Shown one piece after another: positions 9,900 to 40,622 of a DNA stretch of 40,622 bases. The stretch comes from a virus (Duplodnaviria > Heunggongvirae > Uroviricota > Caudoviricetes): the IMG/VR virus record IMGVR_UViG_2671180275_000009, positions 1 through 40,622 of that record. One strand, written 5' to 3'. The notes under the pieces are model-generated. The model saw only the letters and a list, made by a program, of their open reading frames with translations, did not search any database and was not told the origin of the DNA. Numbering within the stretch: position 1 is the stretch's first letter; the number at the start of each line of letters is the position of its first letter. The position numbers and the translations under genes are program-made.

Positions 9900-10228
9900 T
9901 AACGACATTATTTGTTGAATCAGATGAACCCCTTGTGTGTGCCGCCGGAATGCCGGTCTGTGGCGGAACGCTGACCGGTGTTTATTTCGGGGATTTGCGC
10001 GGTTATCCCTGGCATTCACTGGATGACGCATTTCCGCCTGATATGGAGGCTGTCGTGCTGATTGTTCAGTATGGTGACCAACAGGAACTGCGCATCGGCC
10101 ATATGGGGTATGAAGGCTTTTTTATTGATGAAGAAACCGGAGCCTGCCTTGAAGATGAGGACGGACAGGTGACGCACTGGTGCCATATTTCAGCTTTACC
10201 GGAATTACAGGAGACGCCCAATGGATGA
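9896..10228 (+). CDS. Hypothetical protein (DUF551-like C-terminus)
   Basis: 110-aa acidic ORF ending ...VTHWCHISALPEL. Confidence 0.45.
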   Translation: MITTLFVESDEPLVCAAGMPVCGGTLTGVYFGDLRGYPWHSLDDAFPPDMEAVVLIVQYGDQQELRIGHMGYEGFFIDEETGACLEDEDGQVTHWCHISALPELQETPNG

Positions 10229-10901: not shown

Positions 10902-10930
10902 GGCGGTGCGGTAACACCGCCCATTTTTTA
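10902..10930 (+). terminator. Rho-independent terminator candidate
   Basis: GGCGGTG / CACCGCC 7-bp stem with 6-nt loop followed by CATTTTTTA. Confidence 0.5.
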
Positions 10931-11460: not shown

Positions 11461-11490
11461 AAATCCCGCCACAACGCGGGATTTTTATTT
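11461..11490 (+). terminator. Rho-independent terminator candidate after gemA
   Basis: AAATCCCGC / GCGGGATTT stem, 6-nt loop, followed by TTTTATTTT. Confidence 0.6.
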
Positions 11491-34383: not shown

Positions 34384-34406
34384 AAGGGTGCGATAAGCAC
34401 CCTTTA
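34384..34406. terminator. Hairpin between convergent S and tail fibre assembly genes (candidate bidirectional terminator)
   Basis: AAAGGGTGC / GCACCCTTT 9-bp stem with GATAA loop. Confidence 0.45.
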
Positions 34407-35484: not shown

Positions 35485-36045
35485 ATGCTGATTGGCTATA
35501 TACGCGTATCAACAAATGACCAGAACACAGGTTTACAAAGAAATGCGCTGGAATGTGCAGGATGTGAGCAGATTTTTGAAGACAAAATGAGTGGTAAAAC
35601 GACGCAGCGGCCGGGACTGAAGCGGGCACTGAAGAAACTAAAACCCGGCGACACACTGATGGTCTGGAAACTGGACAGGCTGGGGCGCAGTATGCGCCAC
35701 CTTGTTGCGCTGACAGATGAATTACAGCAACAGGGGATAAATTTTCGTAGTCTTACTGACAACATTGATACGTCAACCCCCATGGGGCGCTTCTTTTTTC
35801 ACATAATGGGTGCGCTGGCAGAAATGGAGCGTGAATTGATTGTCGAACGGACACGGGCTGGTCTTGCTGCTGCCCGTGAAAGGGGACGAACCGGCGGCAG
35901 ACCCCGTCGTCTCACGCAGGAACAATACGAGCAGGTCGGGCGTTTACTGGCCGGGGGTGTCAGCCGAAGACAGGTGGCACTTATTTTTGATATCGGCCTT
36001 TCAACCCTTTATCGTTATTATCCTGCGAGCGTTTCGGAAAAATAA
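35485..36045 (+). CDS. gin: Gin/Hin/Cin-family serine DNA invertase
   Basis: 186-aa ORF starting MLIGYIRVSTNDQNTGLQRNAL (catalytic Ser motif) with C-terminal HTH; adjacent to invertible segment. Confidence 0.85.
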   Translation: MLIGYIRVSTNDQNTGLQRNALECAGCEQIFEDKMSGKTTQRPGLKRALKKLKPGDTLMVWKLDRLGRSMRHLVALTDELQQQGINFRSLTDNIDTSTPMGRFFFHIMGALAEMERELIVERTRAGLAAARERGRTGGRPRRLTQEQYEQVGRLLAGGVSRRQVALIFDIGLSTLYRYYPASVSEK

Positions 36046-36144
36046 GACGCTCTCTTTGTTGGGCCTTTACTGAATTAACGCAAAATGGCGTTTATCGGTC
36101 TGTGGATATGATAATTCTGTTTATTCAGGAACAGGCTGATTATT

Positions 36145-38184
36145 ATGACGTCCAAATGGGTTCAACTATCATCAATGCCCGGAAACTTTACTGTTAAAGT
36201 TTCCGGTGGTACAGCGGCATTTCTTGAGGCTCCCTTTCCTCCGGCCGAAACAAAAGGAGGAATGACATTTGCTGACTGTCTCATCAGTTTTAATACACGG
36301 GATTGCCTGTGGGTAAGGCCAGTATCCGGTGATCCGAGCGTGGAAATTACCGGTGCGGGTATTGGTGCTGTCATTCCGTTAAGTGCTGATGTTGCCGGTA
36401 CTGCTGAACCGTCAGACTGGGATAATGCTGAAACACATACCCGTCCGTCAGGAAATGAAACTGCTTCCAGCTCCCCTTCCTGGTATTACGTGGTGGTTCT
36501 TGCTGGTCAGTCAAACGGGATGGCCTACGGTGAAGGTCTGCCGCTGCCGGAGACATATGACCGCCCCGAACCGCGTATTATGCAGTTAGCCCGTCGCAGT
36601 ACAGTCACGCCGGGAGGTAAAGCCTGTCAGTATAACGACATCATTCTGGCCGACCACTGTCTGCATGATGTGCAGGATATGAGTGGAAAAAATCACCCGA
36701 AAGCGGATGTGGCTAAAGGGCAATATGGCACCGTGGGTCAGGGGCTTCACATTGCCAAAAAACTGCTGCCGTTTATTCCGGCAGATGCGGGGATTCTGCT
36801 GGTTCCCTGCTGCCGTGGTGGTTCTGCATTCACGGCGGGTGCTGACGGCACGTACAGTGACAGCACGGGTGCTTCAGAGGACTCAGCCCGCTGGGGTGTG
36901 GATAAGCCGCTGTATAAGGACTTAATCAGCCGGACAAAAGCGGCACTGGCGAAGAACCCGAAAAACCGCCTGCTTGCTGTGGTGTGGATGCAGGGCGAGT
37001 TTGATATTGATGCGAAGCCGACGGAGCATTCCGCGCTGTTTCTGGCGATGGTGGAAAAATTCCGCGCAGACCTGGCTGAACAGGCGGAACAGTGTACCGG
37101 TGGCAGTGCTGCTGGCGTTCCGTGGATTTGTGGCGATACCACGTATTTCTGGAAACAGAAAAACGAACAGGCATACCAGGCAATCTATGACGGCTACAAA
37201 AATAAAACAGATAAAAACATTCATTTCGTCCCATTAATGACAGATGAAAATGGCGCGAATGTACCCACCAACAATCCGACAGAAGACCCGGATATTGAAT
37301 CCATTGGTTATTACGGCTCAACGTGGCGTAACAGTGCCGCCACCTGGACATCTGCGGGCCGGGCCAGCCATTTCAGTTCATGGGCACGTCGTGGGATTAT
37401 TTCCGACCGTCTGGCCACGGCTGTTCTGACTCATGCAGGGCGAACCACAGTAAAAGCCGATGTTCCATCTTCTGAAACTGAAGCACCAGTGCCGTCACCT
37501 TCAGAAACTGAAGCAGTAACCACAACACTGCTGTCTTACCGTGTCAGTGAGTCAGAAGGAAATCTGAAAGCCCAGGGCTGGGAGCCGGCTGGCGGTAAAG
37601 CTGAAATTATCAGTGATGCAGGAGGCACAGGTGGTAAGGCAATGAAACTGACCAAGGAAACAGGTAAATCATCCTGGTATCTGGATCATGATGCCGGTAC
37701 TGGTGCTGAACTGCTGAAAAATGGTGGTTTAATCAGTTGTCGTTTTAAAGTACCTGGCGACCTGGTGGCAAACCAGTATGTCATGGCGCTTTACTGGCCG
37801 GTTTCCTCTCTGCCGCAGGGTGTCACCCTGACAGGGGATGCAGGGAATAATCTGCTGGCATCGTTCTACATCCAGACAGACGCAAAAGACCTGAATGTGA
37901 TGCACCACAATGCAAAAGTGGCAACAAATAACCAGAAACTGGGAACCTTTGGTGTATTTGATAATGAATGGCATACGCTGGCCTTCCGTTTTGCAGGAAA
38001 TAACAGCCTTCAGGTTATTCCGGTTATTGATGGTCAGGATGGTGCCGCGTTTACCCTGACGCAGTCACCAGTAGGAACTTTCCCGGTGGACAAACTCCGC
38101 GTAACGGATATCACCAAAAATGCAACTTACCCGGTGCTGATTGACAGCATTGTGGTGGAAGTGAAAAAAGCGGTAACAGAATAA
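36145..38184 (+). CDS. Putative carbohydrate O-acetylesterase (SGNH/SASA family, NanS-like) with additional N- and C-terminal domains
   Basis: 679-aa ORF with YYVVVLAGQSNGMAYGEG (GQSN active-site motif of sialate O-acetylesterase-type hydrolases); GATAAT -10-like element upstream. Confidence 0.55.
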   Translation: MTSKWVQLSSMPGNFTVKVSGGTAAFLEAPFPPAETKGGMTFADCLISFNTRDCLWVRPVSGDPSVEITGAGIGAVIPLSADVAGTAEPSDWDNAETHTRPSGNETASSSPSWYYVVVLAGQSNGMAYGEGLPLPETYDRPEPRIMQLARRSTVTPGGKACQYNDIILADHCLHDVQDMSGKNHPKADVAKGQYGTVGQGLHIAKKLLPFIPADAGILLVPCCRGGSAFTAGADGTYSDSTGASEDSARWGVDKPLYKDLISRTKAALAKNPKNRLLAVVWMQGEFDIDAKPTEHSALFLAMVEKFRADLAEQAEQCTGGSAAGVPWICGDTTYFWKQKNEQAYQAIYDGYKNKTDKNIHFVPLMTDENGANVPTNNPTEDPDIESIGYYGSTWRNSAATWTSAGRASHFSSWARRGIISDRLATAVLTHAGRTTVKADVPSSETEAPVPSPSETEAVTTTLLSYRVSESEGNLKAQGWEPAGGKAEIISDAGGTGGKAMKLTKETGKSSWYLDHDAGTGAELLKNGGLISCRFKVPGDLVANQYVMALYWPVSSLPQGVTLTGDAGNNLLASFYIQTDAKDLNVMHHNAKVATNNQKLGTFGVFDNEWHTLAFRFAGNNSLQVIPVIDGQDGAAFTLTQSPVGTFPVDKLRVTDITKNATYPVLIDSIVVEVKKAVTE

Positions 38185-38333
38185 AAAAAATCCCGCCGGT
38201 CATGATATGGCTGGCGGGAGCTACCTAACCCATAAAGGAAAATAAAAATACTCCCGAAGGAGTAGTTACCAGTCACTTCGTCATGTTTTTACCCGATAAC
38301 GAATTATGTAGTCAATATCAAAGGTAAGGTTAT

Positions 38334-38516
38334 ATGACATTCGTTCATACAATGCTGCTTTATTTCTGCGCTGTGGTCAGTGCGTTATATCTGGTGAGCG
38401 GCGGTTATAAGGTCATCAGAAATTATATTCGCCGCAAAATTGATGACGCAGCAGCCGAAAAGCTCAGTAAAACAGCACAGGCACCATCATCCCCAAACGA
38501 CCCGACCCCGCTCTGA
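38334..38516 (+). CDS. Small membrane protein (60 aa)
   Basis: Hydrophobic N-terminus (MLLYFCAVVSALYLVSGG); AAGGTAAGG RBS. Confidence 0.4.
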   Translation: MTFVHTMLLYFCAVVSALYLVSGGYKVIRNYIRRKIDDAAAEKLSKTAQAPSSPNDPTPL

Positions 38517-38551
38517 TAACGGGGCAATATACCTGCAAAAGGAGAATATTC

Positions 38552-38797
38552 ATGCCAGAGATTAAAGGCACGGTTACTGAAGAGCTTGTCAAACAGGCAC
38601 TTTATTCTGAAGAAGTGAACCGCGTGCTGAAGGCGCAGGTTCGCAAGGATTTTGAGGCACAAATCGACGCATATGTTGATGAAGTGCTGGCCCGAATGGT
38701 TGGCCGTTCTCCGGCTGAAAACAGCACGGAAAATGCTCCTCAACCCGTAGAGCAACCAGAGCCGGTTCAGCCCGGAACTGACGGTACTATGATGTAA
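38552..38797 (+). CDS. Hypothetical protein (81 aa)
   Basis: AAGGAG RBS 8 nt upstream of ATG. Confidence 0.45.
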   Translation: MPEIKGTVTEELVKQALYSEEVNRVLKAQVRKDFEAQIDAYVDEVLARMVGRSPAENSTENAPQPVEQPEPVQPGTDGTMM

Positions 38798-39229
38798 CAA
38801 TACCGACCTGCAGGTTTCCCTGCCGGGTGAATTTGTTAATGCACGTTTTGTGTATTTTCCCTCTGGGGAGAACAGGCAGGGCATATCAGCATCCTGAAAC
38901 AGGAAGCATTTTTTGGTTTGTATGTCTTGCCATTTTGAGATCGAGAACGGCGATAGATGAGCTGTAAGGGAGTCTTACAGGCAGGGTAAACAGGCTCTTT
39001 ATCCATGATAAAGATCTCCTTTTTATGCATCTCTGCTTTACAGGAGACCGGGGAATATCATAGGATACGCCACGAGCTCGAAGTAAAGCATTGATGCAAA
39101 ATTGTCTAAATCGGCCCAGAATAGTTCGCGCTATCTGGGTCGCCCTTTATGTATGTAGTATCCCATTGATTTGAAACATACTACATATACGCACAATCCT
39201 ACCTTCACTGTATAAAAAGTCAATAAAAT

Positions 39230-39368
39230 GATCATTTTATGATCGTTTTCACCACCTAACTCTTCGTTTTCTTTAAGTAAGTAATCACCGCCCTGAATCA
39301 TTGTTGATGACTTTTCAATCTATTTGTTGTATCAATTAAACAAACCGAATCGATCGTTTTTGTCGATC
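39230..39368. promoter_or_regulatory. GATC-rich region upstream of com (candidate Dam-methylation-sensitive regulatory region, by analogy with Mu mom)
   Basis: GATC at 39230, 39241, 39352 and 39365 within 140 bp of AT-rich intergenic DNA. Confidence 0.4.
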
Positions 39369-39415
39369 GATTGCATGAGAAAGGCATCAACAACAAAGCA
39401 GGAGGTTATGCGGCC

Positions 39416-39601
39416 ATGTATCGAAACATACGGTGCCGACACTGCAATAAGCTACTGGCACGGGCCAGTTTCAGTTATCTGGAAGTAAAATGTCCGCGCT
39501 GCAAAACCCTCAATCAAATCACATCTCAGAGCGCCACAGAGCACCCCACATACACAAGGAAATCCTGCCGTGGGGAACAAGAAACATTACTTTCAGTCTG
39601 A
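39416..39601 (+). CDS. com: Com-like zinc-finger translational activator
   Basis: MYRNIRCRHCNKLLARASFSYLEVKCPRCK closely resembles my recollection of Mu Com (IRCKNCNKLL...IEIRCPRCK); GGAGG RBS; 3' end overlaps the next gene. Confidence 0.8.
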   Translation: MYRNIRCRHCNKLLARASFSYLEVKCPRCKTLNQITSQSATEHPTYTRKSCRGEQETLLSV

Positions 39602-40622
39602 TAAGTCACTAACCTATGGTTCAGTATGCAGTGGTATTGAAGCTGCGACAGTAGCCTGGAGCAATCTTGGCTGGAAAGCCAGATGGTTCAGTGAAATAGA
39701 GGACTTCCCGTCAACACTTCTTTCATATCGCTGGCCCCATATACCAAATCTTGGTGATATGGCTTTGCTTGCGCCTCGTATCAGGGATGGGCTTATTGAA
39801 GCACCAGATATTCTTGTAGGTGGAACTCCGTGTCAGGCATTCAGTATGTCAGGCAAACGAAAAGGCCTTTCAGATCCACGGGGGCAGTTAACACTGTCTT
39901 TTGTTGAACTGGCGAATCAGATAGATACCGTTCGGGCATCGCTCAATAAATCCCCCTCAATAATCGTATGGGAAAACGTCACAGGAGTTTTAAGTAGCCA
40001 TGACAATGCATTCGGTCATTTTCTTGGTGCGCTGGCCGGAGCAGGTTGCGCATTACAGCCAGCAAGGAAAAGATGGGCAAACGCTGGTGTTGTGTCTGGA
40101 CCATCGCGTATCGTCGCCTGGCGAGTACTTGATGCCCAATATTTCGGAGTCGCCCAGGCTCGCAGAAGAGTGTTTGTTGTGGCAAGTGCTGGAAAAAGGC
40201 TCGATCCCGGAAAGGTATTATTTGAGTTCCCGCCTGTGTCGCAGGGCGATAAAAACTATTACGGAAAGAAGAAAAAATCCGAATCCCTTCTTGATCAAGG
40301 CATTGAAGGAAAATTGCACCGATATTGCCTTGAAGCATTGCCAAAACGAACAGGCACAGTAATAGCTGGCTATAACGGAACAACTAACCAGGACATGACT
40401 ATGTCTGGTGGGCTCATAGTTGAAAGAGCGCCATATTCAAGGGTTCGTAGGTTGACGCCAACCGAATGCGAGAGGCTACAAGGTTTTCCCGATGGATATA
40501 CAGATATTCCATGGAAAAATTCATCTCCAGCTCATCGTTATAAGGCCATTGGAAATTCAATGCCTGTACCGGTCATGAAATGGATTGGTCGAAGAATACA
40601 GGAAGCGTTAAACGAAGTTTAA
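39570..40622 (+). CDS. C5-cytosine DNA methyltransferase (GTG start overlapping com)
   Basis: Motifs GGTPCQAFS (catalytic PCQ), IVWENV, QARRRVF and IGNSMPVPV in canonical order; stop codon is the last triplet of the window. Confidence 0.85.
   Translation: MGNKKHYFQSDKSLTYGSVCSGIEAATVAWSNLGWKARWFSEIEDFPSTLLSYRWPHIPNLGDMALLAPRIRDGLIEAPDILVGGTPCQAFSMSGKRKGLSDPRGQLTLSFVELANQIDTVRASLNKSPSIIVWENVTGVLSSHDNAFGHFLGALAGAGCALQPARKRWANAGVVSGPSRIVAWRVLDAQYFGVAQARRRVFVVASAGKRLDPGKVLFEFPPVSQGDKNYYGKKKKSESLLDQGIEGKLHRYCLEALPKRTGTVIAGYNGTTNQDMTMSGGLIVERAPYSRVRRLTPTECERLQGFPDGYTDIPWKNSSPAHRYKAIGNSMPVPVMKWIGRRIQEALNEV

Follow-up and report, generated by a model that had tools for sequence, protein, structure and literature searches.

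A predicted small RNA gene convergent with the NanS-p-type esterase gene of an Escherichia coli Mu-like prophage

Between the sialate O-acetylesterase gene and the DUF1378 gene of an Escherichia coli Mu-like prophage, positions 38183-38315 of the minus strand probably constitute a small and self-contained sRNA gene, convergent with the former and upstream of the latter, a reading to which a probability of about 0.75 can be given. The prophage corresponds to the window, i.e., the whole stretch of 40,622 nt analysed here, and is recognised as Mu-like from its invertase, from com and from the annotation “Mu-like phage” in relatives. In the proposed scheme, a sigma-70-type promoter (-35 box TTGACT, 18-nt spacer and A-rich -10 box) would fire leftwards at about 38279, the transcript would first fold a small UUCG-capped stem-loop (hairpin 2), a U-rich single-stranded stretch, namely UUUUUAUUUUCCUUUAUGGGUUAGG, would be exposed next, and a GC-rich hairpin (hairpin 1) followed by U8 would end the RNA inside the esterase stop codon at a length of about 93-96 nt. 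Enterobacterial sRNAs typically bind Hfq through just such a layout, i.e., a hairpin, a U-rich stretch, a terminator hairpin and a poly-U tail, for which reason the RNA is predicted to associate with Hfq and to act as a riboregulator made by the lysogen; as its sequence is the full complement of the esterase-DUF1378 intercistronic mRNA, it could additionally act on that mRNA in cis.

Hairpins, promoter-like element and predicted transcript

An earlier note on this DNA had described two hairpins downstream of the esterase gene, each with an A-run before it on the plus strand, and both are indeed present. Hairpin 1 (CCCGCCGG/CTGGCGGG), the predicted terminator stem-loop of the sRNA on the minus strand, spans 38192-38218 (38191-38219 with its plus-strand extension) and starts 7 nt past the esterase stop codon. 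The A8 run at 38183-38190 overlaps this TAA codon (38182-38184) and corresponds on the minus strand to a U8 tract, which would provide the terminator tail and probably an Hfq-binding 3' end. Hairpin 2 (TACTCC-CGAA-GGAGTA) lies at 38249-38264, is preceded on the plus strand by AAAATAAAAA (38239-38248) and reads on the minus strand as UACUCC-UUCG-GGAGUA, the predicted 5' stem-loop of the sRNA. Defining an intrinsic terminator as a GC-rich stem-loop with a U-rich tract within 0-2 nt, one is found for each hairpin on the minus strand, namely (i) a 7-bp GC stem, one A and U8 for hairpin 1, and (ii) a 6-bp stem with a UUCG loop and then U5AU4 for hairpin 2. On the plus strand there is none, AGCTACCTAA being found 3' of hairpin 1 and GTTACCAGTC 3' of hairpin 2; a plus-strand terminator reading was dropped, as no T-run lies 3' of either hairpin and the scans gave no plus-strand site here. 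The proposal that the hairpins look like terminators of minus-strand transcription even though the flanking genes lie on the plus strand is supported, both by the U-runs being restricted to the minus strand and by the mapped 3' end of the known sRNA PasC, which is the positional counterpart of hairpin 1. Like canonical Rho-independent terminators, hairpin 1 has a GC-rich stem directly before 7-8 U on the minus strand; unlike them, it would close a tiny non-coding unit and not a protein-coding operon, and its loop is long (15 nt) and partly paired.

Respective to the whole window, the hairpin pair is not due to chance. A strict scan of both strands over 40.6 kb (perfect stem of 6 bp or more, at least 3 of them GC, a 3-16-nt loop and a minimum of 6 T among the 8 bases that follow) recovered nine sites against 1.27 +/- 1.0 in 30 dinucleotide shuffles, i.e., about a 7-fold excess, and hairpins 1 and 2 make up two of the five minus-strand sites, 30 nt apart. 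A looser scan detected hairpin 2 alone at this locus and showed no enrichment over the window (9 sites against 6.8 in shuffles). Further clean terminator-like sites occur on the minus strand at 34385-34403, directly 3' of a minus-strand tail-fibre assembly gene, and on the plus strand at 9953-9978, 10902-10921, and 11462-11483.

In the window variant, the plus-strand fold of hairpin 1 (13 bp including 2 G-U, -23.2 kcal/mol, z -4.9) is more stable than its minus-strand fold (7-bp GC stem with an interrupted extension, -14.7 kcal/mol, z -2.1), because two positions are G-U in the former and A-C in the latter. This stronger plus-strand fold, its start just after the stop codon, and three mismatches at pair 16/48 of the minus-strand alignment that become G-U on the plus strand would all suit a stem-loop acting in the plus-strand mRNA, where it would block 3' exonucleases or mark an esterase/DUF1378 processing site, the A-runs then being incidental. 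As an explanation for the locus this is unlikely, since the plus strand has no U-tract and hence no termination there, since the A7-8 run kept in essentially all variants and the whole of hairpin 2 would be left unexplained, and since most variants are palindromic while two others are G-U on the minus strand only. Such a role is compatible with the sRNA reading, though, and hairpin 1 may possibly serve as a secondary stabiliser in the plus-strand mRNA. As for hairpin 2, the folding energies are -7.2 kcal/mol on the plus strand and -8.2 kcal/mol on the minus strand, where it has the UUCG tetraloop. This hairpin is limited to the Sp18-type prophage variant and is not conserved elsewhere; among close relatives its bottom base pair varies and one relative has an internal mismatch, and in the Stx2a-phage variant its place is taken by another, unrelated small hairpin. 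It is read as the 5' stem-loop of the sRNA and may also act as a weak early terminator, giving a by-product of about 40 nt.

Upstream of the hairpins on the minus strand, at about 15-50 nt and 22 nt away from hairpin 2, lies a promoter-like element with a predicted -35 box TTGACT (38310-38315) and, 18 nt after it, a predicted -10-like box TAAAAA (38286-38291). Only 0.05 matches to TTGAC-N19-WAAAAA would be expected in the window, where this one is the single occurrence. The TAAAAA box is devoid of the consensus final T, for which reason a promoter scan missed the element. By analogy with the starts of PasA and PasC, and provided the promoter is active in the source strain, transcription would begin at 38278-38281, i.e., 5-8 nt past the -10-like box, and the predicted RNA would run from about 38279 to 38184. 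It is predicted to fold into a 5' stem-loop and, after some 29 unpaired and U-rich nucleotides, the terminator hairpin with its poly-U tail, although as a whole the predicted RNA folds little better than shuffles (z -1.3). The linker UUUUUAUUUUCCUUUAUGGGUUAGGUAGC (38220-38248, minus strand), unpaired in the centroid fold, is a candidate Hfq-binding site and seed, and its core CCUUUAUGGGUU is kept in window-type and L012-type variants and partly in L004-type variants. As such, the predicted RNA combines a terminator hairpin bearing a tail of at least 6 U with an internal U-rich site beside the hairpin, as in the layout of Hfq-dependent sRNAs.

The locus is unannotated in RefSeq. Searching 37600-39700 against Rfam at a permissive E-value gave chance-level matches, with no family reaching its gathering threshold; the top match, anti-hemB (15.7 bits against a threshold of 49.5, E = 1.8), shares the generic shape of two hairpins and a U-run. 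When the linker was compared with the whole window using RNAduplex, the best interaction (-24.6 kcal/mol) lay within the invertase gene and stood about 4.5 sd away from the mean of some 16,000 scanned segments; this match was judged not meaningful, and no prophage target stood out from the tail of the background.

The esterase cassette and its conservation across prophages

The right end of the prophage carries, in order, invertible tail-fibre genes, a Gin-type invertase gene (35485-36045, plus strand), the gene of the NanS-p-type sialate O-acetylesterase of 679 aa with Pfam domains SASA and DUF6645 (36145-38184, plus strand), with which the predicted sRNA gene is convergent, the DUF1378 gene (60 aa; 38334-38516, plus strand), the DUF826 gene (38552-38797, plus strand), both also assigned by Pfam, a minus-strand ORF homologous to ECs_4996 and frameshifted in the window (38836-39301), and finally a Mu-type com gene and a cytosine-C5 DNA methyltransferase gene (together 39371-40622, plus strand). 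The N-terminal half of the DUF1378 protein is hydrophobic. In Sakai, the ORF ECs_4996 is intact (154 aa) and has no Pfam match. When the stretch 38150-38560 was searched, it proved 100% identical to the DETEC-S792 chromosome and about 97% identical to the Sp18 Mu-like prophage of O157:H7 Sakai and relatives, the gene order of Sp18 being that of the right end of the window. The locus is carried by 177 of 5426 complete E. coli genomes (about 3%) and, among the sampled matches, the carriers are mainly of the Shiga-toxin-producing serotypes O157, O145, O111, and O121.

The cassette is not confined to Mu-like prophages. At the protein level, the window esterase shares 80% identity with a Stx2a-phage esterase that carries the annotation 9-O-acetyl-N-acetylneuraminic acid deacetylase (yjhS) and is of the NanS-p type, and 53% identity with the esterase adjoining PasC in EPEC E2348/69. 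The order esterase-DUF1378-DUF826 is also found in the late region of the Stx2a phage, between stx2AB and the holin gene, so that the element sits inside a cassette common to Mu-like and lambdoid phages. In a sample of 62 DUF1378-encoding loci from viral contigs (19 distinct upstream regions), to which the loci of a Stx2a phage, E. coli JE86, O157 Sakai, and EPEC E2348/69 were added, the downstream context of the viral loci comprises com in 21 cases (Mu-like) and a holin gene in 32 (lambdoid). With similar intergenic types in both contexts, the cassette has moved between Mu-like and lambdoid phages, and the sequence comparison indicates that the whole of it was probably exchanged repeatedly. 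For instance, loci L016-L029 (Mu-like, com) and L030-L031 (lambdoid, holin) have nearly the same esterase-DUF1378 intergenic type.

In an alignment of 18 diverged esterase-downstream intergenic regions in minus-strand orientation, PasA, PasC, EcOnc51 and EcOnc52 included, TTGAC occupies the aligned -35 position in 17, those of PasA and PasC among them, and the 18-nt spacer, an A-rich -10-like hexamer (always TAAAAA, CAGAAA, or GAAAAA in the relatives), a GC-rich hairpin and T7-8 are kept, every variant having the T7-8 run past the stem on the minus strand. On the plus strand, the corresponding motifs are GTCAA and TTTTTA, i.e., the complements of the -35 and -10 boxes. The body of 50-90 nt between promoter and terminator hairpin is largely unalignable. 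Among five close variants, promoter, linker core and terminator stems are invariant and the substitutions cluster in the first ~25 nt of the predicted RNA.

Because MAFFT set the 3' arms of PasC-type and window-type sequences in different registers, pattern tests were used in place of a family covariance model. The terminator core GCCRG...CYGGC is invariant in 14 variants, and the pattern of core and A-run derived from the family occurs once in the window against 0.01 expected. Four of the ten pairs of the stem change on both sides (CG/GC, CG/AU, AU/GC, and CG/UA); 80% of the stem cells are paired, a level that none of 500 column shuffles reached (72.6% in the shuffles), and sliding the 3' partners by 1-3 columns leaves 21-53% of cells paired. 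Comparing G-U with A-C pairs did not settle the strand: wobble pairs fall on the plus strand in one lineage and on the minus strand in two variants, and most stems, being perfect palindromes, fit both strands equally well. The element was assigned to the minus strand on the basis of the invariant U-tract, the conserved promoter and the experimental data on PasA, PasC, and the EcOnc peaks.

This distribution bears on the other function proposed for the hairpins. The earlier note had them insulating the cargo gene or stabilising its 3' end, which no longer appears the best reading given that they lie directly downstream of a conserved minus-strand promoter-like element. Taken by itself, insulation would make the hairpins plain protective terminators against antisense transcription coming from the right, e.g., from the minus-strand ORF at 38836-39301, with no functional RNA involved. 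In line with that, the two minus-strand terminators stand in tandem, none other is found on the minus strand between 39300 and 38270, and Mu-like prophages do have a minus-strand ORF downstream. However, the same A-tract, hairpin and promoter-like element accompany the esterase cassette in lambdoid phages, where the neighbours are plus-strand holin/lysis genes and no minus-strand gene is near; the ORF is frameshifted in the window; and the homologous module of EPEC gives abundant Hfq-stabilised sRNAs (PMC8550237). Mere protection is therefore very unlikely, and the sRNA gene is the reading retained in what follows.

Counterparts among Hfq-associated prophage sRNAs

Five prophage sRNAs of EPEC E2348/69 were identified by RIL-seq, confirmed by Northern blot and found to depend on Hfq for stability (Pearl Mizrahi et al., 2021; PMC8550237). 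Among them, PasC is encoded on the minus strand from 1290909 to 1290832 and partly overlaps the 3' end of E2348C_1246 (Table S6 of the same work), and PasA, likewise on the minus strand and flanked by a plus-strand gene on either side, extends from 743499 to 743415, or as far as 743264 in a minor form; the EHEC homologues listed for them are EcOnc51 and EcOnc52 (PMC8550237). PasA and PasC have further been placed between sialic acid esterase and holin-lysozyme genes, in lambdoid phages only (Zhu, Shabalina and Storz, 2026; bioRxiv 10.64898/2026.05.13.724894). In both E2348/69 loci, the gene upstream of the sRNA encodes a SASA esterase. The 3' hairpin and U7 of PasC start 2 nt past the esterase stop codon (1290830), so that hairpin 1 and its A-run match the PasC terminator in both position and architecture; the minor form of PasA ends at the stop codon of its neighbouring esterase gene. 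The mapped 5' ends of PasA and PasC lie 6 nt past the A-rich hexamer, and the Hfq-CRAC peaks of EcOnc51 and EcOnc52 fall on the same module.

The window element thus occupies the position of a Pas-type sRNA, i.e., directly after a prophage SASA sialate esterase gene and on the opposite strand, and has the same architecture, namely -35 TTGACA in the Pas sRNAs, an 18-nt spacer, an A-rich -10, a GCCAG/CTGGC core and U7. Sequence similarity is another matter: blastn and blastn-short comparisons of PasA, PasC and their loci, and of the EcOnc52 locus, with the window gave chance-level matches, the locus match being a T/A run only, and the element falls outside the PasA/PasC family as defined by BLAST (Zhu et al., 2026). 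Nor does it reside in a lambdoid (Stx-type) phage, the window being Mu-like, although the cassette itself is common to lambdoid phages. As judged from these comparisons, the element would group with PasA, PasC, EcOnc51, and EcOnc52 by architecture and position and not by sequence, and is best viewed as a divergent positional counterpart of PasA/PasC.

The likeness is closest for PasC, from prophage PP5 of E2348/69, which also lies on the strand opposite to a SASA/NanS-p esterase gene, with a terminator and U7 abutting the stop codon, and shares TTGACA, 18 nt and an A-rich hexamer, the GCCAG/CTGGC core, and a similar length (about 78 nt against about 95 nt for the window). The differences are that its body and presumed seed cannot be aligned with the window element, that it has no UUCG 5' hairpin, and that it belongs to a lambdoid prophage where an IS element follows instead of DUF1378/DUF826. 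PasA, EcOnc51, and EcOnc52, all Hfq-bound or Hfq-stabilised, have the same orientation between esterase and lysis genes and the same promoter/terminator layout; PasA (prophage PP2 of E2348/69), however, is a second, distal copy about 150 nt past the esterase stop codon and differs in body sequence. Of note, in PP2 (L067, 2366-2600) the promoter-terminator module occurs twice in tandem after a single esterase gene, as a proximal PasC-like copy and distal PasA, and the 236-nt minor form of PasA is a read-through to the proximal PasC-like terminator.

A more distant comparison is with the anti-sRNAs AsxR and AgvB, which are also Hfq-binding cargo sRNAs of lambdoid prophages, antisense to the late operon near the stx/esterase region, with conserved 3' modules and variable 5' ends (Tree et al., 2014). 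Unlike the window element, they are located upstream of the esterase gene and 3' of both stx and PR', measure 51-60 nt and are unrelated in sequence; the Rfam families AsxR and AgvB gave no match at the window locus. A variable 5' end with a conserved 3' module has likewise been reported for PasA versus PasA-2, and the variation between the window and Sakai follows this pattern, a 2-nt indel and four substitutions all falling in the first ~25 nt of the predicted RNA, the one other difference being a U7 tract in Sakai instead of U8.

The Sp18 prophage of Sakai also offers a candidate for the RNA itself. EcOnc37 is an orphan Hfq-CRAC peak on the minus strand of Sp18 (5077340-5077410), found in 5/5 datasets and bearing a terminator flag (Tree et al., 2014; PMC4104026, Table S2). 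The Sakai record compared here, NC_002695.2, has 5,498,578 bp. Version 1 of this genome, presumably the one used for that catalogue, is taken to be 5,498,450 bp, i.e., 128 bp shorter. Shifted by +128, EcOnc37 corresponds to window positions 38175-38245 on the minus strand, thus covering linker, hairpin 1 and U-tract; at offset 0, it would fall within the esterase gene in antisense orientation, at a place devoid of a terminator, and would still show minus-strand transcription through the locus. Other entries served to calibrate the offset along the chromosome. EcOnc52, EcOnc51, and EcOnc22/24, at 1.18, 2.24, and 2.90 Mb, respectively, fit offset 0. At 3.86 Mb, EcOnc61 would abut the espL2 stop codon at offset 0, which is disfavoured because the authors' filter demands more than 100 bp from a coding region, and lies 125 nt away at +128. 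At 4.40 Mb, an offset of about 100-128 is needed for EcOnc29 to fall on ArrS, located in Sakai via its E2348/69 RIL-seq fragment. The result for EcOnc19, at 4.52 Mb, is ambiguous and EcOnc63 gave no information on the offset. Old Sakai coordinates are given neither in the supplements of Asadulghani (2009) nor in the text of the 2015 comparative paper, and literature searches for the numbers returned nothing relevant.

On this calibration, the +128 mapping of EcOnc37 is quite probable. EcOnc37 is then probably the same element as the predicted sRNA of the window, and Hfq probably crosslinks to the Sp18 version of the predicted RNA, a conclusion that depends on the offset so deduced. The agreement extends to a Mu-like prophage, an identical gene order, a 97%-identical intergenic region, the minus strand and the terminator flag; the difference is that EcOnc37 is a catalogue entry only, in the coordinates of an older genome version.

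Whether such an RNA acts in trans or in cis can be considered from the same relatives. The RNA could be real and yet act mainly as a cis-antisense on the esterase-DUF1378-DUF826 transcript and not as a trans-acting Hfq sRNA, be it by duplex-directed cleavage, by transcriptional interference or, as a candidate mode, by type-I-toxin-like control of the small membrane protein DUF1378. Its full complementarity to the intercistronic region, a predicted promoter located 20 nt upstream of the DUF1378 start codon, and the 60 aa and hydrophobic N-terminal half of DUF1378 would all accord with this, as would the RIL-seq chimeras of PasA with esterase mRNA 3' ends (PMC8550237). On the other hand, the PasA and PasC loci of E2348/69 have neither DUF1378 nor DUF826, and both sRNAs have many trans partners (PMC8550237). 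An exclusively cis-acting antisense appears highly improbable, while some cis-antisense effect on the esterase-DUF1378 transcript is possible alongside the riboregulator proposed here.

Possible significance and further features of the right end

Prophage Hfq sRNAs rewire host regulation in pathogenic E. coli, and most of them are unannotated. With the present locus, the known PasA/PasC group would come to include Mu-like prophages and additional seed variants. The locus is missed when the known Pas sRNAs are used as BLAST queries, even though about 3% of complete E. coli genomes carry it, and a usable search signature reads, on the plus strand, as an esterase stop codon, A7-8, a GCCRG...CYGGC stem and TTTTTA ... 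GTCAA. No general principle is changed thereby, and specialists of prophage sRNAs would not be surprised. As a broader and rather doubtful proposal, the esterase-downstream locus might be a portable riboregulator slot, where a fixed promoter and a fixed terminator/Hfq module frame a freely swapped body and seed, and which travels with the NanS-p cassette between lambdoid and Mu-like phages. If so, (i) the host Hfq network would receive a different seed from each prophage, (ii) the Mu-like version, with seed CCUUUAUGGGUU, would be an uncharacterised regulator, and (iii) this version may control read-through from the esterase gene into DUF1378/DUF826 in cis, whereas the lambdoid equivalent would act on read-through into the lysis genes.

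Several other features were observed in the region. In lambdoid phages, a strong plus-strand terminator-like hairpin, e.g., GGGACCATCGGTGTGTGCCGGTGGTC then TTTTTT, lies just upstream of the holin gene, after DUF826 or PasA (L004, 4395-4440; L067, 2720-2765, plus strand); no such strong plus-strand hairpin follows DUF826 in the window, where there is only a weak site at 38892-38904. On the plus strand at 36027-36052, a terminator-like hairpin (GAGCGTTTCGGAAAAATAAGACGCTC then TCTTTGTT) overlaps the invertase stop codon. If it works, the esterase gene, 100 nt downstream, would need its own promoter in the Mu-like context; none is obvious in 36053-36144. The com gene overlaps the start of the cytosine-C5 DNA methyltransferase gene (350 aa), whose place is taken in Sakai Sp18 and JE86 by a shorter gene (about 245 aa; DNA modification protein in the Sakai annotation), so that the Com-controlled modification gene appears to have been swapped between the window and Sp18/JE86. 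Just upstream of com, at 39348-39372, lies a perfect 9-bp palindrome with GATC sites, AATCGATCG...CGATCGATT, which we take to resemble the Dam/OxyR-controlled mom promoter region of Mu.
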